25,596 bases of DNA from a virus, in IMG/VR virus record IMGVR_UViG_3300025528_000383. One strand, 5' to 3'. The position numbers and the translations under genes were made by a program. Of this stretch, positions 7,515-23,611 are shown one piece after another. The notes under the pieces are model-generated. The model ran no database searches. It was not told the DNA's origin and was given only the letters and a program-made list of their open reading frames with translations. Within the stretch, counting starts at the first letter, position 1. The number at the start of each line of letters is the position of its first letter.

Positions 7515-7560
7515 ATTAACTATAGTCAAATTATAATTCATAGAGCTGCCAATAGTCAAC
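7515..7560 (-). promoter_or_regulatory. Sigma-A promoter of primase 1 flanked by two palindromic operators
   Basis: TTGACT-N18-TATAAT (7559..7530); operators ATTAACTATAGTCAAA (7515-7530) and GCTGCCAATAGTCAAC (7545-7560). Confidence 0.7.
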
Positions 7561-7844
7561 GAAACGTGGGGATAGACCCCGTGCGGCAACCGTTCCCTCT
7601 AATTCCCTTCGCCCTTCTTGGCTATATTGAAGAGAAGCAAAAAAACAAGAAATTTACAAAGGTCGCCGTTGCCCAGGGGTTGCTCATCGCCCATATCCTG
7701 AAACACCAGGATTTAGAGGGTAAAGGCCACGTTGAAAACCAAACCGAAGCCCTTATGCGTCGGCTCGGCAATGTGAATTGGGGAGCCGACCAGGAGTATA
7801 TCCGGCGGAAACACTTTCTTTAAACCGGTTGGCTTTCCCACAAC

Positions 7845-7881
7845 AAAAAGCACCCGTCCCTTTGTGGGGACAGGTGCTTTC
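7845..7881. terminator. Probable bidirectional terminator
   Basis: AAAGCACC.GTCCC...GGGAC.GGTGCTTT inverted repeat with A/T flanks. Confidence 0.7.
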
Positions 7882-7884
7882 TCG

Positions 7885-8133
7885 TTAGAATGGAAGATAA
7901 TCTCCGTTTGACTCAATGATTTTGCGTGCGACTTCCACATCCGGAACCACAAACGATTCCGTTTGGTTCCCCCAAATATGATCCCATTCTCCATCGGGAT
8001 CAACTTCGTAGCGAGCCGGATCAAAATTCCTGTACCGGGCTACAACTTTTCCGTTTTCATCTCGTATCTCAACTGTAACTCCAGTAAAATCCAAGTCTTC
8101 AATTTCGTGATAGGTGAATTCCAAATGTGCCAT
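7885..8133 (-). CDS. Hypothetical acidic protein (82 aa)
   Basis: RBS GGAGG before ATG 8133 (MAHLEFTYHE...); followed by a terminator. Confidence 0.7.
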   Translation of the reverse strand: MAHLEFTYHEIEDLDFTGVTVEIRDENGKVVARYRNFDPARYEVDPDGEWDHIWGNQTESFVVPDVEVARKIIESNGDYLPF

Positions 8134-8321
8134 TTTCTCTTCCTCCATAATATTTTAGTTCAGCAAAACAAAAATCCTTTGATTTCTGGTAGTCATGGTC
8201 TTGGGTATTCAGTCTTCCTGAAATTCTTTCAAAAATCGTAATGCCTTTTTCATTCCACCGTTCCTCCTTTTGAAATACATCGCCCAGAACCAGACGATAA
8301 CTATTTCCTTCCGTTCTTGAC

Positions 8322-8351
8322 ATTGTACTAAACAAAAATCTTCTTCATAAC
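8322..8351 (-). promoter_or_regulatory. Promoter cassette (degenerate SigE-like or weak sigma-A)
   Basis: GTTATG-N16-AGTACAAT; the -35 is identical to the primase 2 promoter; followed by a leader hairpin and TATTTCAAAAGGAGG. Confidence 0.45.
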
Positions 8352-8423
8352 AAAAAGGAGCTTTCCGTTCAGCTTCATCCCGCTTTCTATCATTCCGACC
8401 TTTGATCAGACCCACCTTTACAC

Positions 8424-8454
8424 AAAAAAAATCGTCCCCTCTAATAGGGAACGA
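8424..8454 (-). terminator. Terminator after the Uma2 gene
   Basis: TCGTTCCCT...AGGGGACGA-TTTTTTTT. Confidence 0.7.
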
Positions 8455-8468
8455 ACCTTGGATTCCGT

Positions 8469-9059
8469 TCAGGCCTCATCTTGAAAGATCTTCCTTAAAT
8501 CAATGGTGAGGCCCTTCAAAACACGGACTGGAATCGAATCTTTATGGTTGTACACGTTGTGCAATTCTAACGATCCATTCCTCGGGAGATACACTTCGAC
8601 CAGCCGGTTGGCCGGATCAACGATCCAATACTCCTTCACTCTAGCCCGCCCATAAGCCAGCCGCTTATCCATTCGGTCGATTTTTGCGGTGGCCGGAGAC
8701 AGAATCTCAACGACCAAATCCGGAGCCCCGACAATGCGGTTTTTTTGGATTTTGTTCTTGTCACAAACCACAATTAGATCGGGGCACACCCAATTCCGGA
8801 CTTTTTCATCGATCCATTCATTTTGATAATCCTCGAATAAGTATACATCTATCGGGGCAGCAAACACGCTACAATCCTTTCCTCGAAGATACGAACCGAA
8901 TTCGATCGAAAGTTGGATAGAAATGGATTGATGTTCCGGTGTTGGAGAGGGGGCCATGCTAATGATTTTTCCGTCCAAAACCTCACAACGTTTTCCTTCC
9001 GGCCATGTCGCATACTCTTTGTAGGTCATGGGTGCCTGTTCCTTTTCCGGAATTCCCAT
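8469..9059 (-). CDS. Uma2-family PD-(D/E)XK endonuclease-fold protein
   Basis: EVLDGKIISMAPSP..HQ, PDLIVVCD, GAPDLVVEILSP.T...D...K...Y....V.EYWIVDP motifs. Confidence 0.92.
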   Translation of the reverse strand: MGIPEKEQAPMTYKEYATWPEGKRCEVLDGKIISMAPSPTPEHQSISIQLSIEFGSYLRGKDCSVFAAPIDVYLFEDYQNEWIDEKVRNWVCPDLIVVCDKNKIQKNRIVGAPDLVVEILSPATAKIDRMDKRLAYGRARVKEYWIVDPANRLVEVYLPRNGSLELHNVYNHKDSIPVRVLKGLTIDLRKIFQDEA

Positions 9060-9166
9060 AAATACACACCCTTTCTGTCCTCCTGTTTTTATTATTATAC
9101 ACCATGACTTCGACCCGTTTGATGGCCGGTTTAATGAACTGGGAAACCCTTTACGGGCTTCCCAGT

Positions 9167-10582
9167 TCAGCCGGCATATACCTCCGGGAAGACTTCAACA
9201 AAGTAATGGTTTTTTACTTCCTCCTTCGGGATTTTTTGAGTCTTGCCATATTTTTTGGATAGTTTCTCAATCATCCGAGTATAAACAGTCTCGAACTTAT
9301 GAAAATCCACCCGGCGAATGGTATGCCCCATTCCGTTTTGGATGAGGTCGTCGATGCCTTTGCCATTTTTAATATCCCAAAGGGCCAAGTGAATCTTAAC
9401 CTCCGGAAATTCCTCTCGGATGAGAGCCGCCATGTTCTTAGCATGGTGGAAAACCTGTGGGTTCTCCGCCATGTCGGCGTCATATGCCACATAGATGTGT
9501 TCCAGTGGTGTGCCGGCCTTGAATCTGGCAAACTTCAGCTCCTTATTTATTTCTTTGAAGCTGCCAACACCGGCGACGGACAGACAAACGGCTCCAAAGG
9601 TTTTCGCCACGGCAACCGATTTGAAAAACCCTTCCGTGATGAACATCACGTTTGGATAGCGGTTTTCTGCCGGGTAGGAAACGTGAATCGGAGCCCCTGC
9701 CGCAGTCCCGAAGATGTAGGGGTTGTCGTCGTATGCAGCAAAACTGGATGAAAACCAAGTATACCGCTTCTTCTTTTCCCTTGCCGTGTCCCTACGGATC
9801 TGGATGCCGACGATTTCGCCCCGGGCATTCCGACTGGGTATCCCAATTCCTTTGTACTTGGCGAACGTGTAGCGGTATTCTTGTTCGCCGTTCTCCGGTT
9901 GGGAAGTGTCTAATTCCCAATCCGGACGTGTGTAGAACCCCGGTGTCCGTTTGAACACGTTCGGAGATACCCCGTACTCCCGACACCGATCCAAGAGATC
10001 GTCGAGAAACGCCTGGGTCGGTTCAGGAAAGGTGAAGAGCCCGTAATGTTCGATCTCTTCATCCGAAAGCCCCCGTTTCCGGAGGTAATCCCTATGTTCG
10101 TCCGAAAGGTCTACGCCCTCCAACATTAGCCGGTAGGCGATATCCAAGATGTACGGGATATCGATTTCCGTGAGCCCATTGGCTTTGCCCTGTTTCTTCG
10201 AGGTATCAGGGCTCACCACATGGACATCTATGTCGAAAATCTTCCCGCCGAAGTATTCTTCCGCCTGCTTTTCGCTGATGATTCCCTGATCAACAGCAAT
10301 CTTCAATACCGCAGGCTCGAAACTAATTTTGAATAAATCTTCGACAAACTGGATGCCATCCCCATATGCCCCACATGAGAAGCATTTGTAGATGCCCTTC
10401 CGATCTGAGATTTTGAAGTTTCCGGTCTCTCTGTCCCCGTGGAAAGGGCAGAGTCCATCAGCATCAGTAAAACGGTTCGGTTTCACCAGGATGTATTTCT
10501 CAAGGATCCGAGAAACGGGAAGTTTTTTCACCTCCTCCAGTACCCGAGAAAAAAATTCTCGTTTTCTTCCCTTCACATCCAT
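9167..10582 (-). CDS. CHC2 zinc-finger/TOPRIM (DUF3854-like) DNA primase-like protein, paralog 2
   Basis: CPFHGD...YKCFSCGAYGDGI; GIGIPSRNARGEIVGIQIR; FITEG, AYDAD, KGIDD; start moved to ATG 10582 (RBS AAAGGAGG), 471 aa. Confidence 0.85.
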   Translation of the reverse strand: MDVKGRKREFFSRVLEEVKKLPVSRILEKYILVKPNRFTDADGLCPFHGDRETGNFKISDRKGIYKCFSCGAYGDGIQFVEDLFKISFEPAVLKIAVDQGIISEKQAEEYFGGKIFDIDVHVVSPDTSKKQGKANGLTEIDIPYILDIAYRLMLEGVDLSDEHRDYLRKRGLSDEEIEHYGLFTFPEPTQAFLDDLLDRCREYGVSPNVFKRTPGFYTRPDWELDTSQPENGEQEYRYTFAKYKGIGIPSRNARGEIVGIQIRRDTAREKKKRYTWFSSSFAAYDDNPYIFGTAAGAPIHVSYPAENRYPNVMFITEGFFKSVAVAKTFGAVCLSVAGVGSFKEINKELKFARFKAGTPLEHIYVAYDADMAENPQVFHHAKNMAALIREEFPEVKIHLALWDIKNGKGIDDLIQNGMGHTIRRVDFHKFETVYTRMIEKLSKKYGKTQKIPKEEVKNHYFVEVFPEVYAG

Positions 10583-10651
10583 TCTTGCTCCTCCTTTTTG
10601 AAATAATTGCCCCGACGAGGGCAATGCCTTTCTTTTCCCATACTTCGTGAT

Positions 10652-10681
10652 ATGCTATGGTATCGCCAAAAGGTTCATAAC
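10652..10681 (-). promoter_or_regulatory. SigE-like promoter of primase 2
   Basis: GTTATG-N16-CATAGCAT, 69 nt before the ATG. Confidence 0.65.
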
Positions 10682-10714
10682 AACAGCCGAACTCCGCTTT
10701 CATGCCGTTTGGCA

Positions 10715-10750
10715 TAAAAAAATGAATCCCTTGAACATCAAGGGATTCGT
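10715..10750 (-). terminator. Terminator after ssb
   Basis: GAATCCCTTGA-tgt-TCAAGGGATTC-ATTTTTT. Confidence 0.8.
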
Positions 10751-10759
10751 GGAAAAATC

Positions 10760-11281
10760 TCAGAAGGGAAGATCGTCGTCCGCAATGTCAATCGGGGGCG
10801 ATTCGATTCCGGTTCCGGCTACCTCTTCGGTTCCGGTTCCGTCTCCCTCGCTTGCTCCGTTGTTGACGGGGCCGGAGTCATTCTTGCGGTAGATGACCCT
10901 GAACTTGGAAACAGTCAACGTCAAACGCTTCTGTTTCCCGTTTTTCCCTTCATACTCCTCGATTCCGAGGAACCCTGAAACCGCTACGAGAGAACCCTTC
11001 GGAATGTTGGCATTCGCCAACATCTCCGCCGTCCGTTCCCAGGCTGTCAGTTCTACGAATAGCGTTTCGGCATTTTCGGGGAAGTTCGTTCCGAGCACAT
11101 AATTAATGTGCTTCGAAACATTATTTAGGGCAACCCCCACTTTTGCGACTGCCTTTCCTTTGTTGGTATACCGCAAATCCACATCCCTGGTCGTATTTGC
11201 GATCACAACACCGAAAGGAACCTGATCTTCTCCCACTTTCCGAAAATCGACAAACGAATAAGACTTTCTTTGTTCTGCCAT
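10760..11281 (-). CDS. ssb: Single-stranded DNA-binding protein
   Basis: OB-fold motifs (TRDVDLRYTNKGKAVA, AWERTAE, KGSLVAVSG) and acidic tip DDDLPF; RBS AAAGGAGG. Confidence 0.92.
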   Translation of the reverse strand: MAEQRKSYSFVDFRKVGEDQVPFGVVIANTTRDVDLRYTNKGKAVAKVGVALNNVSKHINYVLGTNFPENAETLFVELTAWERTAEMLANANIPKGSLVAVSGFLGIEEYEGKNGKQKRLTLTVSKFRVIYRKNDSGPVNNGASEGDGTGTEEVAGTGIESPPIDIADDDLPF

Positions 11282-11401
11282 CTTAATCCTCCTTTTTAAA
11301 ATAAATTACCTTGGCACGGGCAATCCCTGTTTTAAACTTTCCCTTTATACTAGATGGACGGAAATGAATTATTCCATTACCGTTACCTTTCCCACGTTCT
11401 C

Positions 11402-11432
11402 ACTCTAACAAATACTATTTCCGATAGTCAAT
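11402..11432 (-). promoter_or_regulatory. Sigma-A promoter of ssb with operator over the -35
   Basis: TTGACT-N18-TAGAGT with extended TG; operator ATTTCCGATAGTCAAT at 11417-11432. Confidence 0.6.
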
Positions 11433-11444
11433 GGTATCCATGTT

Positions 11445-12119
11445 TTAGTGTAGCGTTTTTGTTAATTCATCGTACAGTCCGGCCAATTGGTCGTTTATGT
11501 TGTCAATATCCTTCTTTAGCCGTTCCCGTTCTTTAGGATCCGTCGTCTCCGCCGCTTTGTGGGTCAGTTTGGCCTTTTTTCCTTTCACCTGGAGAATCTC
11601 CAGAGACAGCTTTTGATCGATGTCCTTTTTCCATGAAACGGCTGTAATCACTTCCCCGGTTTTTGTGTCATACATAAGAAGAATTTTCCCGCCTTTCAAC
11701 CCAAAGAGCGAAATGGACAGGTTCCGATTCGTCTCGTATCCCAAGTAGACATCCCGCCACTTAGGATCCAAATCGTCCCGTTCCTCTTTCGGGATTTGGA
11801 TGTTGTATGTGAATGCGGACTCCGGCTTGGTAATCCCGTAGTTCTTAAAAAGAAGCCTGTAGTCTTGATACGTCGTTTGTCTAGGTGTGAAGTATTCTAC
11901 AGCCTCATCAACCGAGAGCGATGCCTGTTCTCTTACGTTTTCTCGGTGTTGGAGGAAGACGTAGACCCCAACCGATAAGGTGAGAAACGCTACGATCATC
12001 AAAGTGACCATCCATTTGATCTTGCGATACCAGGCTCGGTTTTCCTCCTCGGTTTCCGCCTCTTGGATGGCTTTTTTGTCTTCGTCGACTAACGGAGGTT
12101 GTTCCATCCAATCCCTCAT
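11445..12119 (-). CDS. Hypothetical single-pass membrane protein
   Basis: 224 aa, TM helix near residues 36-57, C-terminal coiled coil; RBS AAGGGGGG. Confidence 0.75.
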   Translation of the reverse strand: MRDWMEQPPLVDEDKKAIQEAETEEENRAWYRKIKWMVTLMIVAFLTLSVGVYVFLQHRENVREQASLSVDEAVEYFTPRQTTYQDYRLLFKNYGITKPESAFTYNIQIPKEERDDLDPKWRDVYLGYETNRNLSISLFGLKGGKILLMYDTKTGEVITAVSWKKDIDQKLSLEILQVKGKKAKLTHKAAETTDPKERERLKKDIDNINDQLAGLYDELTKTLH

Positions 12120-13296: not shown

Positions 13297-13869
13297 CTAT
13301 GACCGTGGAACGGTTTTCATTCCATCCATCCTTACTCGTTTGGGTTCCCTACGGGCGATTTGCCGTTCGATATATTCCGGATGGCGGTTGTCCGCAAAAT
13401 GATCAGCTACCAGATCCAATCGAACTTTCGCGAACTCGGCCACTTCCTCAAAAAGATCTTCCATACGAACTTCAACCATGTAATATTCCTCGAAGTCGCG
13501 GAAAAAACCCTCCAAGCGGTATTCCATCCACTTTTGGTAAAATTCGTCGCAGTAGGTCTGGTGAAACCGCATGTCTTGTTTCCAAATTTCCCAAAGTTCA
13601 TGGTGCGGGTGTTCACGGAAATAGCGGTCGCCGTGGTGTAGAAAGGCTTCCCTGGCGAACCAGAGCGAAAATGTCCGGATGAACGCCCGGAACGAAGTGG
13701 CACGGGAATCATCAAATTCGATTAGGATGCCTTCGGGGAGCAGATGAAATTCATATTTCCCTTTGTCGAGGTACATCATCGACTGGAGACGGTCGATGTC
13801 GGCACTCCGGTTGATGTTGAGTAACAGTTTATCCAATGGGAACACCTTCTTTCTGTGAAGGATTGACAA
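13297..13869 (-). CDS. Hypothetical protein (190 aa)
   Basis: TTG start with RBS TAGGAG; closely coupled to the next gene. Confidence 0.7.
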   Translation of the reverse strand: MSILHRKKVFPLDKLLLNINRSADIDRLQSMMYLDKGKYEFHLLPEGILIEFDDSRATSFRAFIRTFSLWFAREAFLHHGDRYFREHPHHELWEIWKQDMRFHQTYCDEFYQKWMEYRLEGFFRDFEEYYMVEVRMEDLFEEVAEFAKVRLDLVADHFADNRHPEYIERQIARREPKRVRMDGMKTVPRS

Positions 13870-13980
13870 ATGTCATCTCCTACGGGCTAAAGCTGGTTTT
13901 CTGACTCTTTTATCATAGTTTTATTGTCTGCAAAACTTAACCGAGCATCCATTTTTTTTGGTAGGAAATCGTTCGAGTCA

Positions 13981-14011: not shown

Positions 14012-14020
14012 GGATTCTGA

Positions 14021-16228
14021 TTAACGAAACCATTTCCCCGCCGAACCCCGCTTCAATTGCGGGATGTCCCAAACGGAAAAGGTCTGGCCGTTTACGGAAA
14101 TTTCCAATCCGCTTCCTTCTTTCACCAGGTACGCTTGTTCCACCGAATCGTCCGCCTTCAGGACAAGACTTTGCACACCCCGTGCGGTTTTTGACTGCAA
14201 TGGGAACACATCCACTTTCATCCGCCCAACATAACCTCGTTTTGTGACAAGAACCAGTTGTTCGTCTCCGTCGGTTTCGGCCACAAGCAGTATCTCGTCC
14301 CCATTCTGCAATCCGGTAGCGGCCATTTTCAGGCGGGTAGAGACAAGTTCGACACCCTTCGTCCGCTTGCAAAGCCCTGAACGGGTGACAAACAGAAATT
14401 CCTTGCCGGAAAGATGGCTTTTCGCCGCCACATACACCGGGTATTCGCTCCGTTCCAACTTCGCTAGGGCGTGAAGGGTTACTCCCTTCTCTTTTTTCTT
14501 CACCTTGGGCACGGCGGAGAGTTTCACCTGGTGGGCATTCCCCCGGTTGGTGAATACCACGAGCCGATCGTCGTCTTTCGTGCGAAAGGCGAATTTGCTA
14601 TCCTCCGGCGGTTCGGCCTGGCCGCCATCCAGCGTACGGCAATAACCGAATCGATCCACCGAAACCCAAACATCTTCCGCCTTCTTCGTCTCCGTATAGC
14701 TGAGACGCTTCATTTCCTTCAAAACGGTCTTCCTCTGGAAGGCGTAGGCGTTTTTCATTTTCAGGTGTTCTTTGTGGATCTCCTTCACAAGCTCTCGATC
14801 GTCTTCGAGAATCTTACGGGCCTTTTCCAATTCCTTTTCCAACTGCTCCCTCTCTTTTTGGAGAGCTTCTACTTCGATTCCACCAAGCCGTTGCAGTTTC
14901 ATATCCAGAATGGCCTTCGCTTGGTGTTCAGTAAATCGGAACCCTTTCGCTATCTTCTCATGCTTTTTCAGGCGGAATGAGATACCGTTCGTGTCCCCGT
15001 TCATGAGGCATCGTTTCATCTGGACGACCGACTTCGATCCCCGGATGGCCTCTATGATGGTGTCAATGACCGACACCGCCGCCATCAAACCGTCCAAAAC
15101 TTCCTTCCTCTCCATCCCCTTTTCGTACAGATAGCGGTACTTCCGCCTTGTCACATCTTTCTGGAAGTCGAGGTACAGCCGGAAATACTCTTTCAACCCG
15201 AGCTGCCTCGGCCGCCCGTCCACGATGGCAAGGAATTGGTAGGTTTCGTTCGCTTCTATTTTCGTCTTGACATAGAGCTTCTCCAAAAATTTCGGAATGT
15301 CCGTCCCCTTCTTCACTTCAAGAACGATGCGGATCCCGTCCTTCGAAGACTCATCTCTCACATCTGTAACCTCGTTTAGTTTCTTCTCTACGACCATTTG
15401 GGCGAGATCAGACACCAGTTTGGCTTTATTCCCAGATAAAGGATAGGGGATTTCCGTAATCACGACGTTGGTTTTGCCGTAAGCGGCGGGTTCAACCTCA
15501 ATTTTTGGACGGATGATCGCCTTTGCCTCACCGGTGCGGTAAAATTCCTGAAATTCCTTTGGGTTGGCGAGAATTCCACCGGTCGGAAAATCCGGTCCTG
15601 GGATGACTTCGAGAAGATCCTCCAGCGAAGCATCCGGTTGGTTTAAAAAAAGTAGAAACGCCTCCATCACTTCGCCGAAATTATGAGGCGGTATGTTCGA
15701 CCGCATGCCGACGGCGATCCCGATTGAGCCATTAACGAGAAGTTGTGGAAACTTGGCGGGAAGCACGACGGGCTCCCGTTCCGTTCCGTCATAGTTATCC
15801 CGGAAATCAACCACATTCTTATCCAGATCGGCCAAAAGCTCTAAGGCAATCGGGGCAAGCCGGGCTTCCGTATACCGCATGGCGGCGGCCGAATCCCCAT
15901 CGATGGAACCAAAATTACCGTGCCCGTCCACAAGTGGAACGTTCAGCCGGAAATCTTGGGCGAGCCGCACCATCGTATCGTAAACCGCCGCATCTCCGTG
16001 CGGGTGATATTTCCCGATGATTTCACCGACGATCCTCGCCGATTTCTTGTAAGGAGTACCTGGCAAAATACCAAGGTTTTTCATAGCATAAAGTACTCTC
16101 CGATGTACAGGTTTGAAGCCATCCCGCACATCCGGAAGAGCCCGGTCCACAATGACGGAGACCGCATAATCCCGGAATGATTTTTTCATTTCCTCTTCAT
16201 ATGTGATAGTTTCGATGCGTTCTTCCAT
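14021..16228 (-). CDS. gyrA: Type IIA DNA topoisomerase subunit A (GyrA/ParC family; no GyrA-box, so topo IV-like)
   Basis: RALPDVRDGFKPVHRR, GKYHPHGD, catalytic AAMRY(119)TE, PGPDFPTGG; short beta-pinwheel CTD. The symbol is family-level; gyrA versus parC is unresolved. Confidence 0.92.
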   Translation of the reverse strand: MEERIETITYEEEMKKSFRDYAVSVIVDRALPDVRDGFKPVHRRVLYAMKNLGILPGTPYKKSARIVGEIIGKYHPHGDAAVYDTMVRLAQDFRLNVPLVDGHGNFGSIDGDSAAAMRYTEARLAPIALELLADLDKNVVDFRDNYDGTEREPVVLPAKFPQLLVNGSIGIAVGMRSNIPPHNFGEVMEAFLLFLNQPDASLEDLLEVIPGPDFPTGGILANPKEFQEFYRTGEAKAIIRPKIEVEPAAYGKTNVVITEIPYPLSGNKAKLVSDLAQMVVEKKLNEVTDVRDESSKDGIRIVLEVKKGTDIPKFLEKLYVKTKIEANETYQFLAIVDGRPRQLGLKEYFRLYLDFQKDVTRRKYRYLYEKGMERKEVLDGLMAAVSVIDTIIEAIRGSKSVVQMKRCLMNGDTNGISFRLKKHEKIAKGFRFTEHQAKAILDMKLQRLGGIEVEALQKEREQLEKELEKARKILEDDRELVKEIHKEHLKMKNAYAFQRKTVLKEMKRLSYTETKKAEDVWVSVDRFGYCRTLDGGQAEPPEDSKFAFRTKDDDRLVVFTNRGNAHQVKLSAVPKVKKKEKGVTLHALAKLERSEYPVYVAAKSHLSGKEFLFVTRSGLCKRTKGVELVSTRLKMAATGLQNGDEILLVAETDGDEQLVLVTKRGYVGRMKVDVFPLQSKTARGVQSLVLKADDSVEQAYLVKEGSGLEISVNGQTFSVWDIPQLKRGSAGKWFR

Positions 16229-16242
16229 CGCTTACACCTTCC

Positions 16243-18168
16243 TCACAAGTCCACGTTGGCGTTCGGGGCTTCCTGAATGATGAATTCTCGCCTTGGCTCC
16301 ACCTTCGCTCCCATGAGAAGAGTGGTAATGACATCCGCCTCCACGGCGTCTTCAATCTGAATCAGCCCAAGCCTTCTTGTTTTTGGATTCATAGTGGTTT
16401 CCCATAACTGTTCGGAACTCATCTCCCCCAGCCCCTTGTACCGCTGGATGTCCTTGACAACATGACGGCCATACTTTTCCCGAAGTCGATCCCTCTCCGC
16501 ATCAGAATAAGCATACACATACGGTGGAAGTCCCTTTTTCTTTTCCAGTTCGAGGCGATAAAGCGGTGGAATCGCCCGGTAGATATGACCTTTCAGGATA
16601 AGCTCCGGTGCATAGCGGTAAAACAAGGTGAGAAGGAGTGTTCGGATGTGACTTCCGTCCACATCGGCGTCCGTCATGATGATGATCTTGTCGTATTCGA
16701 GTTTTGAGAGGTCGAATTGGTCTCCAAAACCACAGCCCAACGCACTAAACAGAGTGGTGATCTCCACATTTTTAAGTGCACGGTCAATGGAGTTTTTCTC
16801 GATATTCAAAATCTTTCCACGGATTGGAAGGATCGCCTGAAAGTTACGGTCCCGGCCTTGCTTGGCGGTGCCGCCAGCCGAATCCCCTTCTACGATGAAC
16901 AGCTCCCGTTTCGACTTGTCCCGAGTCAGGCAACTAGCGAGCTTGCCGTTCGTCTGGAGTTGGATTTCTTTCGATTGTAGGTTAATCCTCGCCCGGTCTT
17001 CCGCCTTTCGTACTTTGAGGGCACGCTCGGCCTGTTCGACGATGTGTTTCAATTCATCCACATGACGATCGAAAAATCTCGCCCCTTCCCGGATAATGCA
17101 GTCTTCCACCGCCGATTTCGCATCGCTCGACCCGAGCCTCGCCTTCACCTGACCCTCATATTGCGGATCCGGGTGGCGGATGGAGATAACTGCGACCATC
17201 CCGCTGCGGATATCCCGACCGTCAAACGGCTCCTTGGCAAGCCTGAGTTCCTTTGCATATTGGTTTACAAGTTTTGTCCAGCCGGCCTTGAAGCCGGTGA
17301 CGTGCGTCCCACCTTCCACGGTGGCAATGTTGTTGCAATAGCTGATGATCTGCTCAGTGAATTCCCGGGTGTATTGGAGGGCAATGTCAATTTCGATTCC
17401 GTTCGACACCCCGGAAAACGAGATGATCTCTCCGGTCGCTTCCCGATCTGCGTTAAGCCTTTTGACAAGGCCTTCGATACCTCTTTCTTCGCAAAACCGG
17501 ACGGACTCCGCCGTGCGTTCATCAAAGAGCCACAAGATGAGCCCCTTGTTCAGGTAGGCGGTCTCTTGAAGGCGTTTCCGCACCGTCTCAAAAGAGAATT
17601 CGACGGTCTCAAAAATTGCCCTATCCGGTTTGAACCGAATCTTTGTCCCGGTGTGATCCGCTTTTCCAATCTCGGGAAGCGTCCCCTTTTGGGTGAGTTC
17701 GACCACGGGTTTTCCGCCGTTTTCGTAGCGGTCGTGATGCACCTTCCCTTCCCGATAGATTTCTACATCGAGCCATTCGGAAAGGGCGTTCACGACGGAA
17801 GCTCCCACGCCGTGGAGGCCGCCTGAAATTTTGTAGGTTGAGCGGTCGAACTTGCCCCCAGCATGGAGGGTGGTGAAGATGACCCGAGCGGTGGGGATTT
17901 TCGCCTGCGGGTGAATGTCGACGGGAATTCCCCGCCCGTTGTCCTCCACCGTGACGGAGCCGTCCTTGTGGAGGGTCACTTTGATTTCCGTACAGTACCC
18001 AGCCAGATGTTCGTCTATCGCATTGTCGAGGATCTCCCACACAAGGTGGTGCAAGCCTTTTGGACCGGTCGAGCCGATATACATGCCGGGACGGACCCTT
18101 ACAGCGTCGAGCCCCTCCAAGATGGTGATGGAAGACCCGTCATACCGTTTCGCTTCTTGAACAATCAC
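16243..18168 (-). CDS. gyrB: Type IIA DNA topoisomerase subunit B (GyrB/ParE family)
   Basis: VRVRPGMYIG, EILDNAIDE, DNGRGIP, GGLHGVG, EGDSAGG, PIRGKILN, MTDADVDGSHI, QRYKGLGEM. The symbol is family-level. Confidence 0.94.
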   Translation of the reverse strand: MIVQEAKRYDGSSITILEGLDAVRVRPGMYIGSTGPKGLHHLVWEILDNAIDEHLAGYCTEIKVTLHKDGSVTVEDNGRGIPVDIHPQAKIPTARVIFTTLHAGGKFDRSTYKISGGLHGVGASVVNALSEWLDVEIYREGKVHHDRYENGGKPVVELTQKGTLPEIGKADHTGTKIRFKPDRAIFETVEFSFETVRKRLQETAYLNKGLILWLFDERTAESVRFCEERGIEGLVKRLNADREATGEIISFSGVSNGIEIDIALQYTREFTEQIISYCNNIATVEGGTHVTGFKAGWTKLVNQYAKELRLAKEPFDGRDIRSGMVAVISIRHPDPQYEGQVKARLGSSDAKSAVEDCIIREGARFFDRHVDELKHIVEQAERALKVRKAEDRARINLQSKEIQLQTNGKLASCLTRDKSKRELFIVEGDSAGGTAKQGRDRNFQAILPIRGKILNIEKNSIDRALKNVEITTLFSALGCGFGDQFDLSKLEYDKIIIMTDADVDGSHIRTLLLTLFYRYAPELILKGHIYRAIPPLYRLELEKKKGLPPYVYAYSDAERDRLREKYGRHVVKDIQRYKGLGEMSSEQLWETTMNPKTRRLGLIQIEDAVEADVITTLLMGAKVEPRREFIIQEAPNANVDL

Positions 18169-18198
18169 GTTTTAATGCACTCCTTTCAGTCGGCAAAT

Positions 18199-19254
18199 CT
18201 ATCCTATTGGGAATAGGCAGGTGGTCGTGCTAAGAAAACATGGGCTTTCTCCAATTCGTTCAAATTCCGCTCGCACGATTTTTCCCCGTCGGATTTCGGG
18301 GCGAAACTTGTAGATGTCCGTCTGGGTTCCTCCATCCAATAGCGGGCGGACGAGTTCCGGATAATTGCGTGGCAGGATGGCGATGAAACGCACCCGTTCT
18401 GTGCGGAACCGCTTCTTGATCTCTTCCGTGTAATACCATTTCTGCCAAATAAGATCCGTGTCTTTTTCGACTTTGAGCTCAACGACAACGATGGCTCCTT
18501 CCCGATCTTTGGCGAGGATGTCAATCCTCCCGTTTGGAAGCAGATATTGGTGTCCGACGAGTTTCAGTCCCGATTCGATATCCTCCAGATGTTCCATTAC
18601 GTATCGTTCCAATTCAGATTCCGCCACGAGCTCCGCATCCTCCACCTTCTCGTTGAAGGCGGCAATCTCTCGCTGGCAGACTTCCTCCAAGGTGAGCTTC
18701 AGATTGATTTCACAGTAGTGAAAATGCGGGAGGTTTTTCGGGAGTGTCACCTTCGCTCCATACGCTCCATTCAACTTATCCAACATCCATTTTTTCACGA
18801 CGAACGGATAGACCCGCTTGTTCCGATATTTCTGCGACTTCCGTTTGGCTTCCCGTAGCCAGGTCTCTACCTCTTTTTGTGCTCTTTTCCACTCTTTCAG
18901 GGGGTCCGGATCTTGACTGGAAAGGATTCGATCCATACCGAGACGATGGAGGAGGTCGTCGTAGATGTTTTTGAGTGGGGTTCCAATGTTGGTGGTCACT
19001 GGCACGGGGACGCCCTTGTAGAGGAACCTCCCGTCTTGGACGGGGATTGCCAAGTCTTCTATCCAGAACCTCATGAAAAAAGCCGGTAGCTCCGTTGCCC
19101 CGACCCGTGGGATTTTCAAACCATCCATGTAAACAATGAGACTCCGGCGGAACAGGTACGGCAGGAGCGTCTTCCGGTCAATGCCGTATAGCCGTTCCGA
19201 TTCCGCCACAAACACCTCTTCCAGTTCTGATTCATACATCGCCGCTTCCAGCAT
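18199..19254 (-). CDS. Protein with C-terminal NucS/EndoMS-like PD-(D/E)XK nuclease domain
   Basis: ESELERYV...GRIDILAKDREGAIVVVELK; N-terminal ~200 aa not recognised. Confidence 0.78.
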   Translation of the reverse strand: MLEAAMYESELEEVFVAESERLYGIDRKTLLPYLFRRSLIVYMDGLKIPRVGATELPAFFMRFWIEDLAIPVQDGRFLYKGVPVPVTTNIGTPLKNIYDDLLHRLGMDRILSSQDPDPLKEWKRAQKEVETWLREAKRKSQKYRNKRVYPFVVKKWMLDKLNGAYGAKVTLPKNLPHFHYCEINLKLTLEEVCQREIAAFNEKVEDAELVAESELERYVMEHLEDIESGLKLVGHQYLLPNGRIDILAKDREGAIVVVELKVEKDTDLIWQKWYYTEEIKKRFRTERVRFIAILPRNYPELVRPLLDGGTQTDIYKFRPEIRRGKIVRAEFERIGESPCFLSTTTCLFPIG

Positions 19255-19296
19255 AGATGGTCCCCGCTTCCTTGATTTGTTCCCAAGTCTATCTTT

Positions 19297-19384
19297 ATTG
19301 TATGATTACAATTGCCTATAGTCAATAAAATAATGCTTTCTGCCTTCGTTCGTTATTGATATTACCTATAGGCAATAGTATTAT
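19297..19384. promoter_or_regulatory. Divergent sigma-A promoters, each with a palindromic operator
   Basis: Minus: TTGACT-N17-TACAAT (19325..19297) with ATTGCCTATAGTCAAT at 19311-19326. Plus: TTGATA-N17-TATTAT (19356..19384) with ATTACCTATAGGCAAT at 19361-19376. Confidence 0.75.
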
Positions 19385-19488
19385 TAAGAAAAGAATATAA
19401 TTCTGGAAAGGGTTTCTCTCCCTTTCGATTCTCAAGTGAGTCGGTATTTCTTAAAAGAACTTTACATCCTTTTAAAGGAGAGATGTGT

Positions 19489-20097
19489 ATGGTTAAATCC
19501 AGTGAACCCCGATACGAAAATTTTCAAGTGTATCGGGTGGACGGGAAAAACAAGTTTCTCGAAATCCTGTCCAGAAGTTTTGAGATCGGTAAAGTCATAT
19601 TCAACTTTGTTGAGTATGACGATACCAAAGCCGCAGGAAGCCGAATCACCCAACAAGTCATGATTTACATGGATTTTCCAAAGTTCAGAGTCTTCGCCCA
19701 TGACATGTTATCGGGTCGTTTCGCCAAAATGGCGGAAAATAAAAACAACCCGATCTTCCAAGACTTGACGGGGACCTCTTCAGAACGGCTTGCCGCTCAA
19801 AACCGGGCAAGGGAAGACGGGAAAGCGGAATCCCGTAAACTGACTCTTAGTCCTGCCGCAAAAGGCTTCTTCCTCACTGCTGAAGCCGGGCCTGGGGAAG
19901 AGTCGGAAACGGGGTTAATCAAACCTACCGGTAATGTGGAAAGACGTGTGTCCATTTTGCTTGATCCGGACCATGCCAAGGAGCTGGTACTCACTACCCT
20001 GGCGGCTATGGACGCTTATGAAACCGCCAAGGAAACCGTACGCCAGTTCGAAGCCATCCGGAAAGCCCGACTCAACCCGTCCGGGAAGACGGCTTGA
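19489..20097 (+). CDS. Hypothetical protein, possible Whirly/PC4-like ssDNA-binding fold
   Basis: RBS AAAGGAG 8 nt before ATG 19489; 202 aa with two beta-meander plus helix units. Confidence 0.7.
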   Translation: MVKSSEPRYENFQVYRVDGKNKFLEILSRSFEIGKVIFNFVEYDDTKAAGSRITQQVMIYMDFPKFRVFAHDMLSGRFAKMAENKNNPIFQDLTGTSSERLAAQNRAREDGKAESRKLTLSPAAKGFFLTAEAGPGEESETGLIKPTGNVERRVSILLDPDHAKELVLTTLAAMDAYETAKETVRQFEAIRKARLNPSGKTA

Positions 20098-20112
20098 TCG
20101 CTTTTTTGGCAC

Positions 20113-20150
20113 AAGATGTCCCGCCCCATTGAAGGAGCGGGACATCTTTT
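20113..20150 (+). terminator. Terminator-like hairpin
   Basis: AAGATGTCCCGC...GCGGGACATCTT-TT. Confidence 0.65.
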
Positions 20151-20173
20151 AAATTCACATAGGAGGAAAAAGC

Positions 20174-20413
20174 ATGCAGGTCATTCAATTTGAGGATCGG
20201 CTAAGTTGGAGAGCCGCTCGGTTATATGCAAAGTTACGGGATTATCGCATTAGAACATTGGCAAACAGCCTTGAAAACGGGCAACCAGTTTATTACGTCT
20301 GGCTGTATCAGATGACGTCGGAACAAGCCCAAGACATGAAACACCGTGTGTCATCCCTCCCTGGAGCCATGTGGTTGACCGACCCGGAAGAAGTTTCAAC
20401 CGAAGGATATTAA
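20174..20413 (+). CDS. Hypothetical protein (79 aa)
   Basis: RBS AGGAGG; co-oriented small gene. Confidence 0.7.
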   Translation: MQVIQFEDRLSWRAARLYAKLRDYRIRTLANSLENGQPVYYVWLYQMTSEQAQDMKHRVSSLPGAMWLTDPEEVSTEGY

Positions 20414-20447
20414 GAGGCGATTTAAAAAACGGAAAGGATGATTGTAC

Positions 20448-20801
20448 ATGGGATACATCCGCCACAACGCCATCGTCGTCACGGCGGACGGTAACGATGT
20501 TGCATATCAACGTCTGAATCTTGCCTATAGAAAGGCAAAAGAATTGTTCGGGGATCTCGTGAGCGAGATTGTCGATTCGCCGTGGAACAAGCATCGTTCA
20601 TTTTTTATTGCTCCTGACGGCAGCAAGGAAGGTTGGGAACCATCCAATGAGTTCGATGTCAAACGGACTGAGTTTGCCGATTTCCTAGACAACCTTGCTT
20701 TTGAGGACGGATCGAATTGCATCCGGTTTGTCGATGTCGCTTTCGACGAAAAACACCAAGCGAAAGTGATGCGAACAAACCGCCCCATGGAAGTAGAATG
20801 A
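20448..20801 (+). CDS. Hypothetical protein (117 aa)
   Basis: RBS GAAAGGGA 8 nt before ATG 20448; contains FFIAPDGSKEGW. Confidence 0.7.
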   Translation: MGYIRHNAIVVTADGNDVAYQRLNLAYRKAKELFGDLVSEIVDSPWNKHRSFFIAPDGSKEGWEPSNEFDVKRTEFADFLDNLAFEDGSNCIRFVDVAFDEKHQAKVMRTNRPMEVE

Positions 20802-20861
20802 TATCTTTACGAACAGAACTGTTAATGTGTGGTTCGTAAGCGATTCAAAGGAGGCAATATC

Positions 20862-21071
20862 ATGCTGGATAAAAAGGAAGTTGTTAGGTTCTTTCATAAG
20901 AATTTCCAAAAATTGGGATGGAGAGAAAAGAGAGTTTTTGTTTATTCCTCTGATTGTATCTCAATAGAAGAAACCAAGAATCCCGGATTGTACAAAATAT
21001 CGAGTCCTTTTGGAAGTTTTGAGTTTGCATGGAACTTAGCGGGATATGAAAGGGGAACAGTATTGGGCTAA
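20862..21071 (+). CDS. Hypothetical protein (69 aa)
   Basis: RBS AAAGGAGG before ATG 20862; lower GC; followed by a terminator. Confidence 0.65.
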   Translation: MLDKKEVVRFFHKNFQKLGWREKRVFVYSSDCISIEETKNPGLYKISSPFGSFEFAWNLAGYERGTVLG

Positions 21072-21088
21072 GAAAAAAAGTAAAAACA

Positions 21089-21127
21089 ATGGTGTTCCTT
21101 TGGAAACTGGGAACGCCATCTTTTTTT
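21089..21127 (+). terminator. Intrinsic terminator
   Basis: ATGGTGTTCC...GGAACGCCAT-CTTTTTTT. Confidence 0.75.
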
Positions 21128-21141
21128 GAAAATTGCCTAGT

Positions 21142-21191
21142 AAAAAGCATAGATAAAGGCGTTTCACCGCAAAGGATGGAACGCCTTTATC
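21142..21191 (-). terminator. Hairpin/terminator downstream of the sigma gene
   Basis: GATAAAGGCGTT...AACGCCTTTATC 12-bp perfect stem. Confidence 0.6.
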
Positions 21192-21286
21192 AGTTGGAAT
21201 TCGCAATATAGGATAAGTTCGGTTCCATCCGTAGCGGAGTGGATGGAAGACTCGTGTGAAGATTTACTCGTTTGGGGATTTAGGGT

Positions 21287-21916
21287 TCAGGAGGCATATC
21301 GATCGAAGTGTTCCTCGAATAGCTCAATGTCATCTTCGTTTTCACTCATCAAGAACTTCTTAATCTTCTTCATGCAATTCTTTTGGATCTTGGAGACATT
21401 GGCCTGCGACATATTGATTTCAGCGGCGATCTCCTTCTGTGTTTTAAATTCGCATCCGTTCAATCCGTAGCGGTGGTTGATGATGTATTGCTCCAGCTCG
21501 GAAAGTTGACTCACCGCTCGCAGAATCACCTCGTGATTCTCCTTTCGGACAAGCAGTTCGCTAACCTCTTTTGCTTCATCACTTTTGTCGGACAGGATGT
21601 TGTAGAGTTCGAAGTCGTTCCCGTTCTTGTCCGTGGATAACACGAGGTTATAGGAGACATTGTGATCAGATTGTCTTCGTTCTTTCCGGAGGAAAAACCG
21701 CACCTCGTTCTTCATGCAATTGACGGCGTAAGTGGAAAACTTTGCTCCCCGAGCTTTATCGAAGGAGTTTAGGGCTTTCGTGAAACCAAACATCGCCGCC
21801 CCATAGAGGTCGTCGTAGTCGATGCGGGTGTTTCGAAACTTGTTGGCCACGAAATGAACGAGCTGCAAATTCTCCTCCGCCATCCGATTTTTTTCTTCTT
21901 CGGTCAAAAGCGGCAT
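21287..21916 (-). CDS. Sigma-70 family RNA polymerase sigma factor, sporulation (SigE/SigK)-like, with no pro-sequence
   Basis: Region 2 ENLQLVHFVANKF, DDL...GFTKALNSFD..GAKFSTYAVNCMKNEVRFFLRK; LSTDKNGNDFELYNIL linker; region 4 RYGLNG..KTQKEIA..INMSQANVSKI; RBS AAAGGGGTGA. Confidence 0.9.
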   Translation of the reverse strand: MPLLTEEEKNRMAEENLQLVHFVANKFRNTRIDYDDLYGAAMFGFTKALNSFDKARGAKFSTYAVNCMKNEVRFFLRKERRQSDHNVSYNLVLSTDKNGNDFELYNILSDKSDEAKEVSELLVRKENHEVILRAVSQLSELEQYIINHRYGLNGCEFKTQKEIAAEINMSQANVSKIQKNCMKKIKKFLMSENEDDIELFEEHFDRYAS

Positions 21917-21933
21917 CGGCTCACCCCTTTACG

Positions 21934-21949
21934 GTTGACTATAGGTTAT
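21934..21949 (-). promoter_or_regulatory. Palindromic operator just upstream of the sigma gene RBS
   Basis: ATAACCTATAGTCAAC (minus strand) matches the 8-copy consensus. Confidence 0.6.
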
Positions 21950-22170
21950 GGTACATTTTCATCATAAGAATTATTCCTTCCCTTCTCTCGTTTTTTCGGT
22001 CCAAGACCGTCCGACATCATTTAAACCAGTTGTAACCCACACGTTATTAGGGTTTCACGCACAAAAAAATAGCAGGCTCCAGATCCAGAGCCTTTGCCGC
22101 CTTATTGTCAATAGGAGTCTTTGTTGTTATAGCGAACCTTCCCCTGGTTTAACCGGAAAACAGGATAAAC

Positions 22171-22194
22171 AAAAGGAGCCTTTAGGCTCCCTTT
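22171..22194. terminator. Terminator hairpin, repeat copy A
   Basis: AAAAGGAGCC-TTTA-GGCTCCCTTT. Confidence 0.65.
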
Positions 22195-22394
22195 CATAAC
22201 TCATCTGACAAATCTATTACTTTTTTTACAAACCACAATTCCCCTCTATCAACAGCCACAAGTCTAAATCCTTTTTTTTGGAGATATAGTATCGCATCTG
22301 GGCCATTTTCGAAAACTTTTGATTCAAACCGTTCTTTTGTATAGATGAATGTACCTCCATCATCATAAACTTTCGCATGAATATATTTCTCCAT
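22194..22394 (-). CDS. Hypothetical protein (66 aa)
   Basis: RBS AAAGGGAGG before ATG 22394; low GC; has its own promoter and terminator. Confidence 0.7.
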   Translation of the reverse strand: MEKYIHAKVYDDGGTFIYTKERFESKVFENGPDAILYLQKKGFRLVAVDRGELWFVKKVIDLSDEL

Positions 22395-22460
22395 ATAATC
22401 TTTCCTCCCTTTCAATTTCATTGCCTGAAAGGCAATCCCTCATTTTTTTTGATTCCTTCT

Positions 22461-22490
22461 ATGCTATGAAGTTGAGCTCCGGATCATCAC
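22461..22490 (-). promoter_or_regulatory. SigE-like promoter
   Basis: GTGATG-N16-CATAGCAT, 66 nt before the ATG. Confidence 0.65.
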
Positions 22491-22508
22491 CGGTGAACAA
22501 AGTGAAAT

Positions 22509-22535
22509 AAAAGGAGCCTATAGGCCCCTTTTTTT
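22509..22535. terminator. Terminator hairpin after the thioredoxin gene, repeat copy B
   Basis: AAAAGGAGCC-TATA-GGCCCCTTTT; 21/24 identical to 22171-22194. Confidence 0.65.
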
Positions 22536-22560
22536 GTTATTGAGCGGAATGAACGGCGTG

Positions 22561-23469
22561 TCAGTTTTTGCTCTTCCCGCTTTCTTTCGATGATTTAGTC
22601 GCACTCGTGCCGTTATGATCCACACTGTCCTTGTCGATCGCATCTTTTTTGATCAGCTCTTTCTCGGAAATTTCCTTCCCGTTCTTATCCACTCGGACGG
22701 TGATGGTGCGAACATTATCGTAGAGCTTTTCGTCACCGAAGGCCGTCTCAATCATATCCTGGAACATGATGGCATCCTTAGAGCCAATATAGGTGTAACT
22801 GATTCGGCCAGTGTTATCAATAAACACGAAGGTCGGAACTTGTTCCACCATGTATTTGTCAATAGCGAGTTTTTTCAAACCCTTATTATCTTCCAGGCTC
22901 AATACCAGCTTTGGGCGTTTCAGATTGAGACTCTTATAGTAGGCGTTGATATCCTTGTTGCGATCGACTGGAAAAATCGTTACGAAGGTGATGTCGGGGT
23001 TCTTTTTTGCTAATTCAGACAAGATCGGGCTCATTTGTTGGCAGACCGAGCAGGTTGTTTTAGAGAAGGCGAGGATAACATTTCTCCCTTTCAGAGCTGA
23101 TAGTGAGAAATCTTTTCCGTCCATCGTTTTTCCGGAGATTTCCGCAGGTTTTTTCCCGATGTTTTTCAAAGCGTAATTCATTGAAAGCGTGTCCGGGAAG
23201 TTGACTTTGAACAAGTTCATCCCCTTTTCTGTATATTGGGCGAGGATTTCTTCGGGGGATTTCGAATAGTCGATGGTCACGGGTTTTTCCACAAATCGGT
23301 ACGATGCTTCATTTTTCTTGGCAGTCTTATGATGCACCGCTTTATCTGTATGGGCCGTCTCTTTTTCATGATGAGCCGCACCCCACAAGAATCCAAACGA
23401 TATCAAAGCCAAAACGACAAAAGCAACACCAATTCCTCCCAATACCCAGTTTTTCTTTTCTTTTTCCAC
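22561..23469 (-). CDS. Membrane-anchored TlpA/ResA-like thiol-disulfide oxidoreductase
   Basis: N-terminal TM anchor; DGKDFSLSALKGRNVILAF, CSVC active site, cis-Pro loop VPTFVFIDNTG; GTG start with RBS GGAGGTG. Confidence 0.85.
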   Translation of the reverse strand: MEKEKKNWVLGGIGVAFVVLALISFGFLWGAAHHEKETAHTDKAVHHKTAKKNEASYRFVEKPVTIDYSKSPEEILAQYTEKGMNLFKVNFPDTLSMNYALKNIGKKPAEISGKTMDGKDFSLSALKGRNVILAFSKTTCSVCQQMSPILSELAKKNPDITFVTIFPVDRNKDINAYYKSLNLKRPKLVLSLEDNKGLKKLAIDKYMVEQVPTFVFIDNTGRISYTYIGSKDAIMFQDMIETAFGDEKLYDNVRTITVRVDKNGKEISEKELIKKDAIDKDSVDHNGTSATKSSKESGKSKN

Positions 23470-23554
23470 GATCCGACACCTCCGTGGCTTTCGATTTGCA
23501 AAGACGTTCTTCTACGATCGGTTCTTCCGAATCGGACATTTTCTATAAGGAACT

Positions 23555-23611
23555 TTTGCCAATAGGCAATATTTCTTCCTATATTCTAACATACCGTTAA
23601 TTATAGTCAAT
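23555..23611 (-). promoter_or_regulatory. Sigma-A promoter of the thioredoxin gene with two operators
   Basis: TTGACT-N16-TAGAAT with extended TG (23610..23583); operators TTTGCCAATAGGCAAT (23555-23570) and GTTAATTATAGTCAAT (23596-23611). Confidence 0.62.

Follow-up and report, generated by a model that had tools for sequence, protein, structure and literature searches.

The 25,596-nucleotide stretch of DNA filed as IMG/VR virus record IMGVR_UViG_3300025528_000383 (hereafter the window) carries eight intergenic copies of a palindrome, which an initial annotation had described as the 16-bp operator of a global repressor regulon. By comparison with related replicons, the annotated consensus is a local variant of a 14-bp word, TTGAC-W4-GTCAA, that recurs throughout a family of large Bacillota plasmids. 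Our analysis suggests that the eight sites are copies of this family operator and that it is bound by an XRE protein, a helix-turn-helix (HTH) regulator, which would keep RNA polymerase off between a fifth and a third of the promoter regions (probability about 0.6). As far as sequence can tell, it is likely that the word is the operator of a plasmid-encoded repressor. That the binder is the product of a syntenic XRE gene is probable, given the synteny, co-occurrence and covariation described below.

Eight palindromic sites in the window

All eight strings are present where they had been reported, the one at 21934 on the minus strand. They are listed below with their matrix scores, together with a possible weaker ninth site.

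Site B, 7515..7530 (19.3 bits): directly 3' of the primase-1 -10 box, covering the predicted transcription start, 30 bp from site A
Site A, 7545..7560 (11.4 bits): TTGACT (7559-7554, minus strand) is the primase-1 -35 box, followed after 18 bp by TATAAT
Site C, 11417..11432 (12.5 bits): TTGACT is the ssb -35 box, followed after 18 bp by TG-n-TAGAGT
Possible ninth site, 13862..13877 (9.3 bits): over the start of the open reading frame (ORF) 13297-13869, in the operon after gyrA
Site D, 19311..19326 (22.6 bits): TTGACT is the -35 box of nucS(-gyrB-gyrA), followed after 17 bp by TACAAT
Site E, 19361..19376 (15.4 bits): in the spacer of the divergent promoter (TTGATA at 19356, 17 bp, TATTAT) of the PUR/Whirly-like operon
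Site F, 21934..21949 (12.8 bits): between a weak putative -10 box and the ribosome-binding site (RBS) of the sigma gene
Site G, 23555..23570 (15.8 bits): 3' of the tlpA -10 box; it also supplies the TTGCCA -35 box of a rightward promoter for ORF 23705
Site H, 23596..23611 (13.3 bits): TTGACT is the tlpA -35 box, followed after 16 bp by TG-n-TAGAAT

The equivalent place after gyrA also has a site in several relatives of the window (pJeoMA, which is L001, as well as L003 and L004).

The half-site ATAG(T/G)CAA, which had been called invariant, is indeed found in all eight sites. It is not confined to them: counted on both strands it matched 11 times, at 10 places (the 8 sites and two coding matches, at 6462 and 20521), compared to a mean of 0.96 and a maximum of 4 in 300 dinucleotide shuffles. 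When up to three mismatches were allowed, TTGMCTATAGKCAA was found 11 times where 2.13 matches were expected, and none of 100 shuffles reached 11. A symmetric matrix was built only from pJeoMA, BTB_502p and the P. thiaminolyticus plasmid, which avoids the circularity of a self-defined motif. This matrix, trained outside the window, placed the eight sites at ranks 1-8 (11.4-22.6 bits), and the next match was the one at 13862. Within the 3,518 intergenic bases, 8 sites were observed against a shuffled mean of 0.037 (maximum 1 in 1000 shuffles). With TTGACT held fixed and the remainder randomised, the chance of a score of at least 11 was 0.007; the right half therefore does not simply accompany the -35 box. 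The window has ten intergenic TTGAC(A/T) words, of which six are sites. The copies are imperfect, five of the eight having three mismatches to the family word TTGACTATAGTCAA.

The statement that all sites are intergenic is correct overall; for the two primase-1 sites it depends on a gene start at ATG 7487, which has an RBS, rather than at TTG 7589. A consensus scan recovered the four TTGACT -35 boxes that had been predicted, at 7559, 11431, 19325 and 23610, with -10 boxes at 16-18 bp. The remaining four sites had been placed in spacers or downstream of -10 boxes, which fits 19361 (spacer) as well as 7515 and 23555 (after the -10 box). The description has to be extended for 23555, which also supplies a -35 box, and for 21934, which lies by a weak putative -10 box. 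Rightward promoters were found by the same scan at 19356 and 23556. As a separate observation, one metatranscriptome covers most of the window, and its contigs break near 7568-7581, 19271-19400 and 23443-23566, by three promoters; these data stem from one study, may include DNA, do not allow expression to be ranked and were not used as evidence.

A family-wide word at sigma-A promoters

Pfam searches of 30 ORFs recovered a VirB4/PrgI/pilin block in the window, as well as two primases, SSB and both gyrase-type subunits (A and B). A sigma factor, a prepilin peptidase and proteins resembling NucS and TlpA are also encoded. The VirB4/PrgI/pilin block is that of a type IV secretion system (T4SS), so the element is of conjugative type. 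In homology searches, the primase and ORF 19483 matched one common set of large Bacillota plasmids, comprising pJeoMA (603 kb), BTB_502p (502 kb), pSC2 (510 kb), pGspE55-1 (Geobacillus) and pJFP838A (C. perfringens), and further plasmids of Aneurinibacillus, Brevibacillus, P. thiaminolyticus and C. difficile BI1. The window shares its gene order with these plasmids, and trees of the sigma factor (100/100) and of VirB4 (87/95) place it with pJeoMA. Judged by these comparisons, it belongs to a family of Bacillota conjugative megaplasmids so far without a name. Sequence near-identical to the window was found in two bioreactor sequencing runs, one of which may be its origin, and one soil run. In the viral collection, relatives of nucS or of an 80-amino-acid (aa) protein that marks the family were not found, and an Rfam search gave no match.

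At up to two mismatches, TTGACTATAGTCAA occurs 149 (pJeoMA), 111, 82, 55, 60, 60 and 70 times on seven plasmid records, whereas the reversed control gave 1-6 matches. Two records with a variant word have 2 (pGspE55-1) and 7 (C. difficile plasmid) matches; the words of the C. difficile and Geobacillus plasmids (TTGACTATATAAAA, TTGACTTTAGGAAA) are close to one-sided. The centre differs by replicon (TATA, AATA/TATT or AAAA/TTTT) and is always A/T, which gives TTGAC-W4-GTCAA (14 bp) as the family word. In the literature searched, the scope of which excluded subscription journals and bioRxiv supplements, neither the exact 14-mer nor a description of the regulation of this family was found. Six variants of the word had a single literature match, PMC9604920, which is apparently unrelated. 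In the viral collection, the exact 14-mer has scattered matches on unrelated-looking contigs.

To relate the sites to genes, a simple custom ORF caller was used in the relatives. In three replicons, 139/149, 108/111 and 53/60 of the sites are intergenic, and convergent gaps hold only 2 sites per replicon, though 44, 44 and 32 such gaps exist. TAnnnT is found 16-18 bp behind the TTGAC half at 62/101, 51/86 and 16/40 of the oriented sites, compared to 6, 13 and 4 in the reverse orientation. A second class, in which the site follows the -10 box, has 11, 33 and 9 members, part of which may be accounted for by A/T-rich flanks. The distribution along the entire replicon, with roughly one site every 4-8 kb, would also suit a role in organising the nucleoid, in partition or in loading condensin, with the site merely tolerated between genes. 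We regard such a non-transcriptional role as very improbable, since the sites are nearly absent from convergent gaps and stand in phase with -10 boxes.

The same geometry could reflect a positive promoter element, in which an extended -35 (TTGACTATA...) would allow a plasmid activator, or a factor that remodels sigma, to give plasmid promoters the preference, the symmetry being secondary. Most sites are indeed fixed at the -35, the half that forms it is the better conserved one, and the nearly one-sided words of the C. difficile and Geobacillus plasmids agree with this explanation as well. However, the symmetry is strict in two distant replicons, and sites are also found after -10 boxes, in spacers and beside an RBS, which suits steric repression. 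Moreover, the spacers are 16-18 bp long and the promoters already near the sigma-A consensus, while MerR-type activation involves spacers of 19-20 bp. A positive element is therefore an improbable explanation of the word, and repression by an operator-bound protein is preferred.

Two other palindromes were noticed during these searches. One, GTAAA-N6-TTTAC, is intergenic and enriched in three replicons (5, 12 and 10 copies), and the other, of CTATC-N10-GATAG type, is found on the C. difficile plasmid. Both are candidate partition, replication or second-regulator sites.

The word is rare on host chromosomes

A sample of 400 Bacilli genomes was searched besides the centre genome (that behind locus L047); the window's own host genome is not part of this sample. 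At up to one mismatch, 399 of the 400 genomes have 0-5 sites, while one has 20. The latter (G250) is the only one of the 400 that bears the 80-aa marker gene of the family, and it is not an independent case, as its marker-gene coordinates coincide with those of a plasmid record already counted. The centre genome has 64 matches and, among the matches listed, all are on a 739-kb contig with family genes. Two genomes with a PUR-like gene (G003 and G004) have 1 and 3 sites and no match to the 80-aa protein, and a third (G002) has no site; these three may hold other or partial elements.

The initial annotation had left room for a host regulator site common on the chromosome and had set the word apart from the Bacillus LexA, CIRCE and Fur boxes. 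The low counts in 399 of the 400 genomes speak against the former and agree with the latter, and the distinction can be extended to CtsR and FNR. The FNR/Crp-type word TTGAT-N4-ATCAA has the same 5-4-5 layout, and a plasmid that exploits such a host site would explain this likeness. Apart from the layout, nothing we found favours this explanation: the chromosomal counts in the sampled genomes speak against it, as do the confinement of the listed L047 matches to the family contig and the conservation of the word across hosts of two classes, and we consider it very improbable. The data support a plasmid-specific operator that overlaps sigma-A core promoters. Two other known layouts, a CtsR-type direct repeat and a MerR-type long spacer, do not fit the sites.

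A syntenic XRE gene is the candidate repressor

No obvious repressor gene had been seen in the window, and we found none either: Pfam detected no stand-alone HTH or ribbon-helix-helix (RHH) protein among the 30 ORFs, and an XRE profile gave no match. Three XRE genes recur among the proteins common to the replicons, along with one small protein that has no family. One of the XRE genes encodes a protein of 226-400 aa with an N-terminal helical extension and an HTH_3 domain; searches with the extension gave no usable match. In all replicons examined this gene is syntenic, located between Tad genes and the divergent 80-aa gene, which is followed by a replication-relaxation gene. It had been proposed to look for an HTH or RHH gene with the motif in its own promoter. 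Such a gene is absent from the window and present in the relatives, where 7 of 9 replicons have a site of at least 10 bits in the gap between the XRE and 80-aa genes (the best scores in the two variant ones are 6.7 and 4.6 bits). The 80-aa promoter often has a pair of sites spaced by 30 bp, the first at the -35 box and the second behind the -10 box, as at primase 1.

We also compared 30 metagenome loci of the 80-aa gene, 21 of which have at least 1.2 kb of upstream sequence and were used. The site was found at 7 of 8 loci with the XRE gene and at 0 of 13 loci without it. Over whole loci, there are 23 sites in 99.7 kb with XRE and 2 in 161.8 kb without XRE. In one lineage the XRE gene has been cleanly lost, tadZ is 341 bp from the 80-aa gene and there is no site. 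Left out of the tally were L163, which is cut at the first base, and eight loci with less than 1.2 kb upstream (L135, L138, L144, L145, L148, L155, L157 and L161); among these eight short loci, L135 and L138 have a site and the other six have none.

The same operator and the same repression could be served by another binder, and the main rival to the XRE protein is the 80-aa protein, in a Cro-like arrangement; the other XRE genes come under the same explanation. The core promoter of the 80-aa gene carries the site, often as the pair mentioned above, and its product is 55-92% identical across 63 homologues. The predicted four-helix fold has weak HTH, winged-helix or Myb-like matches (Z <= 5.4) and no significant one. 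On the other hand, the 80-aa gene is present, in some cases at 68-69% identity, at 13 loci that have no XRE gene and no site, and the protein is only 27% identical between two replicons of the same strict motif. The other two recurring XRE genes have an upstream site in only 1/10 and 1/8 cases, and for the small one the gene neighbourhood is not conserved between replicons. Taken together, we consider a binder other than the syntenic XRE protein rather unlikely. The 80-aa gene (L114:1501-1737 and homologues) is nevertheless of interest in its own right as a very conserved family marker without a known protein family, located between the XRE and replication-relaxation genes. Its product is possibly a relaxosome accessory or co-regulator.

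The recognition helix and the motif

The recognition helix of the candidate XRE protein was compared with the promoters of each replicon. Promoters were picked by TTGAC(A/T) and a -10 box only, and the right half was left free. Whole records were scanned for five replicons, and for the rest 400 kb of the records of 404, 414, 510 and 722 kb and 320 kb of that of 739 kb. The helix S-x-S-Y-I-H-R (pJeoMA and pJFP838A) goes with a strict GTCAA, with G10, T11 and C12 at about 0.88, 0.88 and 0.85, and GTCAA is found in 73/111 and 60/110 promoters of the two strict replicons. These two H-R replicons are distant from each other (VirB4 54%, 80-aa protein 27%, XRE 21%). With the H-L helix of BTB_502p, G10 and T11 are kept and C12 drops to 0.18. 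With the N-R helix of five replicons, G10 (0.29-0.46) and T11 (0.29-0.63) are relaxed and C12 is kept (0.41-0.73). The Y-R helix of two replicons, with 8 and 22 promoters, goes with a degenerate right half (C12 0.12-0.14).

The XRE-fold controller C.Esp1396I is described as reading a symmetric GAC-TATA-GTC site through T36 and R46 and as bending and compressing the TATA centre through Y37 (PMC3488213, in the part available). The equivalents in the candidate XRE protein, counted from the tyrosine, are S139, Y140 and R149. In the C. difficile plasmid and in L153, R149 is replaced by K, and both have degenerate sites. The best solved-structure match of the candidate is Rco of plasmid pLS20 (PDB 8BNY; E 5e-10 with the single sequence, 2e-17 with the profile), and the profile alignment extends weakly into the C-terminus of Rco, where its tetramerisation domain lies. 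Rco differs from the candidate in having A for S139 and M for R143 and in lacking the long N-terminal helical extension. It is reported to bind CAGTGAAA direct repeats (PMC9986798, in the part available).

Several observations weigh against the syntenic XRE protein as the binder of a symmetric operator. The covariation supports it and is suggestive only, as the lineages differ in everything else too; the five N-R replicons form a single clade, which leaves only five or six independent states. Rco combines a similar helix with another site, so the type of helix does not fix the site. The -35 half of the word is conserved at 4.82, 4.62 and 4.50 of 5 positions, compared to 4.65, 3.98 and 3.85 for the gene-proximal half, and two replicons have all but lost the latter while retaining the XRE gene. 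Unlike the closest relative pJeoMA, the window variant often has G at position 11. In the gap between the XRE and 80-aa genes, the site is mostly on the 80-aa promoter, 200+ bp from the XRE start, and the XRE-bearing locus L153 has no site of at least 10 bits. The loci without XRE consist for the most part of near-duplicates and of elements at a greater distance, and an XRE gene of theirs could lie elsewhere, on DNA outside the sample. Finally, the predicted XRE gene of the window element itself would be outside the window. Distances in three relatives predict it 9-14 kb past the right end, and of 37 homologues found none could be assigned to the element.

The operator marks a replicon-wide set of genes

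In three relatives, 148/465, 115/401 and 54/275 of the promoter-type intergenic regions have a site, a fifth to a third of the total. The first downstream gene is mostly not common to the replicons (80/101, 58/86 and 23/40). The regulon of DNA-metabolism genes that had been proposed from the window is thus too narrow a description, and by these counts it is the local view of a much larger, replicon-wide set. Core genes that often have a site are tlpA, sigma, ssb, dnaE, an exonuclease and PrgI-VirB4. No site of at least 10 bits was found for the actin-like partition gene, mazF or tadZ in any replicon examined. The genes of the window that bear on this set are as follows.

1004..5346, minus strand: T4SS block with a VirB4-like ATPase, a 325-aa protein, PrgI and two pilin-like genes; no operator site upstream within the window
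6072..7487, minus strand: primase 1, with a CHC2 zinc finger and a Toprim-like DUF3854; predicted target
9167..10582, minus strand: primase 2, a paralogue of primase 1 without a site of its own
10760..11281, minus strand: ssb; predicted target
14021..19254, minus strand: predicted target operon of nucS-like (18199-19254), gyrB/parE-like (16243-18168) and gyrA/parC-like (14021-16228) genes
19483..20097, plus strand: family-specific protein with a predicted tandem PUR/Whirly (PC4-like) fold, in 11 plasmid records; predicted target
21287..21916, minus strand: alternative sigma factor with sigma-70 regions 2 and 4; predicted target
22561..23469, minus strand: TlpA-like thioredoxin-fold protein; predicted target
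23705..24220, plus strand: 171-aa ORF without a family; predicted target of site G/H

The model of the 19483..20097 product (pLDDT 89.7) has two PC4-like repeats, and its fold matches PURA (E 2.7e-4), Whirly and MRP1/2; it probably serves the element as a second protein that binds single-stranded DNA or RNA. The alternative sigma factor is kept in 10/10 relatives compared (41-60%). Operator-free upstream regions showed no enrichment of the SigG/SigF-like promoter consensus tried for this sigma factor.

Some features of the neighbouring genes were recorded in passing. The paralogous primase-like gene pair (6072-7487 and 9167-10582) is also present in pJeoMA, with the operator pair only at the first gene. 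The primase genes are interrupted by an inserted gene for a putative Uma2-family endonuclease (8469-9059, minus strand), which has no operator. Between ssb and primase 2 there is a strong hairpin (10748-10724). Near-identical terminator-like hairpins at 22171-22194 and 22509-22532 flank ORF 22194-22421, and the contig of one run skips 22168-22509; this small ORF may be an insertion between repeats. In pJeoMA, a gene annotated as RNA polymerase (L001, 31096-34332) is homologous to the M23 peptidase found at the same place in relatives, so its label is probably a misannotation. One relative (W04, about 359-364 kb) has a duplicated block of about 20 kb that repeats part of VirB4, XRE and tad genes; its XRE copy is truncated, and the block is possibly an assembly artefact.

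Proposed mechanism and known systems

In the proposed mechanism, an XRE dimer would contact the GAC/GTC half-sites through the major groove and recognise the A/T centre by indirect readout. Bound over the -35 box and the first part of the spacer, or over the start site, it would exclude the sigma-A polymerase. With TTGAC as a half-site, promoter and operator would form one module, and the XRE gene would be autoregulated via the divergent promoter. The regulon may then represent a non-maintenance programme (ssb, primase, nucS-topoisomerase, dnaE, tlpA, the plasmid sigma, some T4SS operons and many cargo genes), with the actin-like partition, MazF and Tad genes outside it. Release could occur on entry into a repressor-free cell (zygotic induction), as in Reg576, or through a signal or antirepressor that removes the repressor, as in Rco with its Rap/Phr antirepression; by analogy with these systems we give the two about even odds.

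The initial annotation had suggested a KorA- or Reg576-style repressor, and neither type fits the candidate. Reg576 of the Bacillus pumilus plasmid p576 is described as an autoregulated RHH protein with dual TTATCCC direct repeats that flank four promoters (PMC6294495 and PMC8708921, in the parts available). The likeness lies in a Gram-positive conjugative plasmid with operators at several strong sigma-A promoters, from which the idea of zygotic induction comes, and in an operator in the promoter region of the repressor's own gene, which the candidate XRE gene has in 7 of the 9 replicons. It differs in that the candidate is an XRE HTH protein and the site a 14-bp inverted repeat, half of which is the -35 box, present in 55-149 copies, and not the RHH protein and TTATCCC direct repeats of the available Reg576 description (PMC6294495). 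The RHH family was not found in the 30 window ORFs or in 60/107 shared BTB_502p proteins, although Pfam and the ORF caller can miss small RHH proteins. With regard to KorA, the candidate matches HTH_3/XRE, and the word is a different one and lies mostly over the -35 box, whereas the KorA operator word lies over the -10 box. The only KORA match was below the cut-off (E 0.0096) and on a different XRE gene. KorA/KorB of IncP-1 plasmids, C1 of phage P1 and mycobacteriophage L5 are examples of one element-encoded repressor with many dispersed core-promoter operators, roughly 7-30 sites. The present set has a different word, is several-fold larger and spans Bacilli and Clostridia, and KorA and KorB belong to other protein families.

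Rco of pLS20 (Bacillus subtilis) resembles the candidate in that its XRE gene is divergent from a repressed promoter, an arrangement seen here in the relatives, outside the window. As described in the accessible parts of the sources, Rco acts at one promoter region with DNA looping and not replicon-wide (PMC4207663 and PMC9986798). An Rco-type direct-repeat operator was not seen: the enriched word is TTGAC-W4-GTCAA instead, and CAGTGAAA itself was not scanned. C.Esp1396I at its OM site has the same symmetric GAC-TATA-GTC core and is reported to repress by overlapping the start site (PMC3488213). In the available part of that source it is small and has three sites at one restriction-modification locus, unlike the candidate, which has 226-400 aa and is not beside restriction-modification genes. 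The candidate is weakly similar to restriction-modification controller entries (profile E about 2e-4). In its operation the system is akin to known global repressor regulons of mobile elements, but by protein family or operator word it falls outside each of them. Its notable aspects are the scale, the conservation across two bacterial classes and the concrete regulator candidate.

In a broader picture, which we offer tentatively and consider less probable than the repressor assignment itself, the word would be part of a prophage-like dormancy switch in Bacillota megaplasmids of 0.1-0.7 Mb, from Bacillus and Paenibacillus to Clostridium. One XRE protein would silence up to 130-180 promoters via the -35 half-site, and cargo would join the regulon by gaining such a promoter. 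Lifting the repression would fire replication, transfer, the private sigma and orphan genes together, and repressor and operator would have co-evolved at single-residue resolution.

For pJeoMA, 77% of the coding sequences are reported to be without known function, and the role of the plasmid is called unexplained in the available part of the description (PMC5027565). The operator sorts the genes of such megaplasmids into a co-regulated and a maintenance set from their sequence alone. It is also a diagnostic marker of the family and points to a single gene. The natural variants of helix and motif are a ready-made series for the recognition rules of XRE proteins. If one repressor does act at more than 100 near-consensus promoters, the regulon would be several-fold larger than those known from mobile elements, and it would suggest how such a large element limits the cost to its host.

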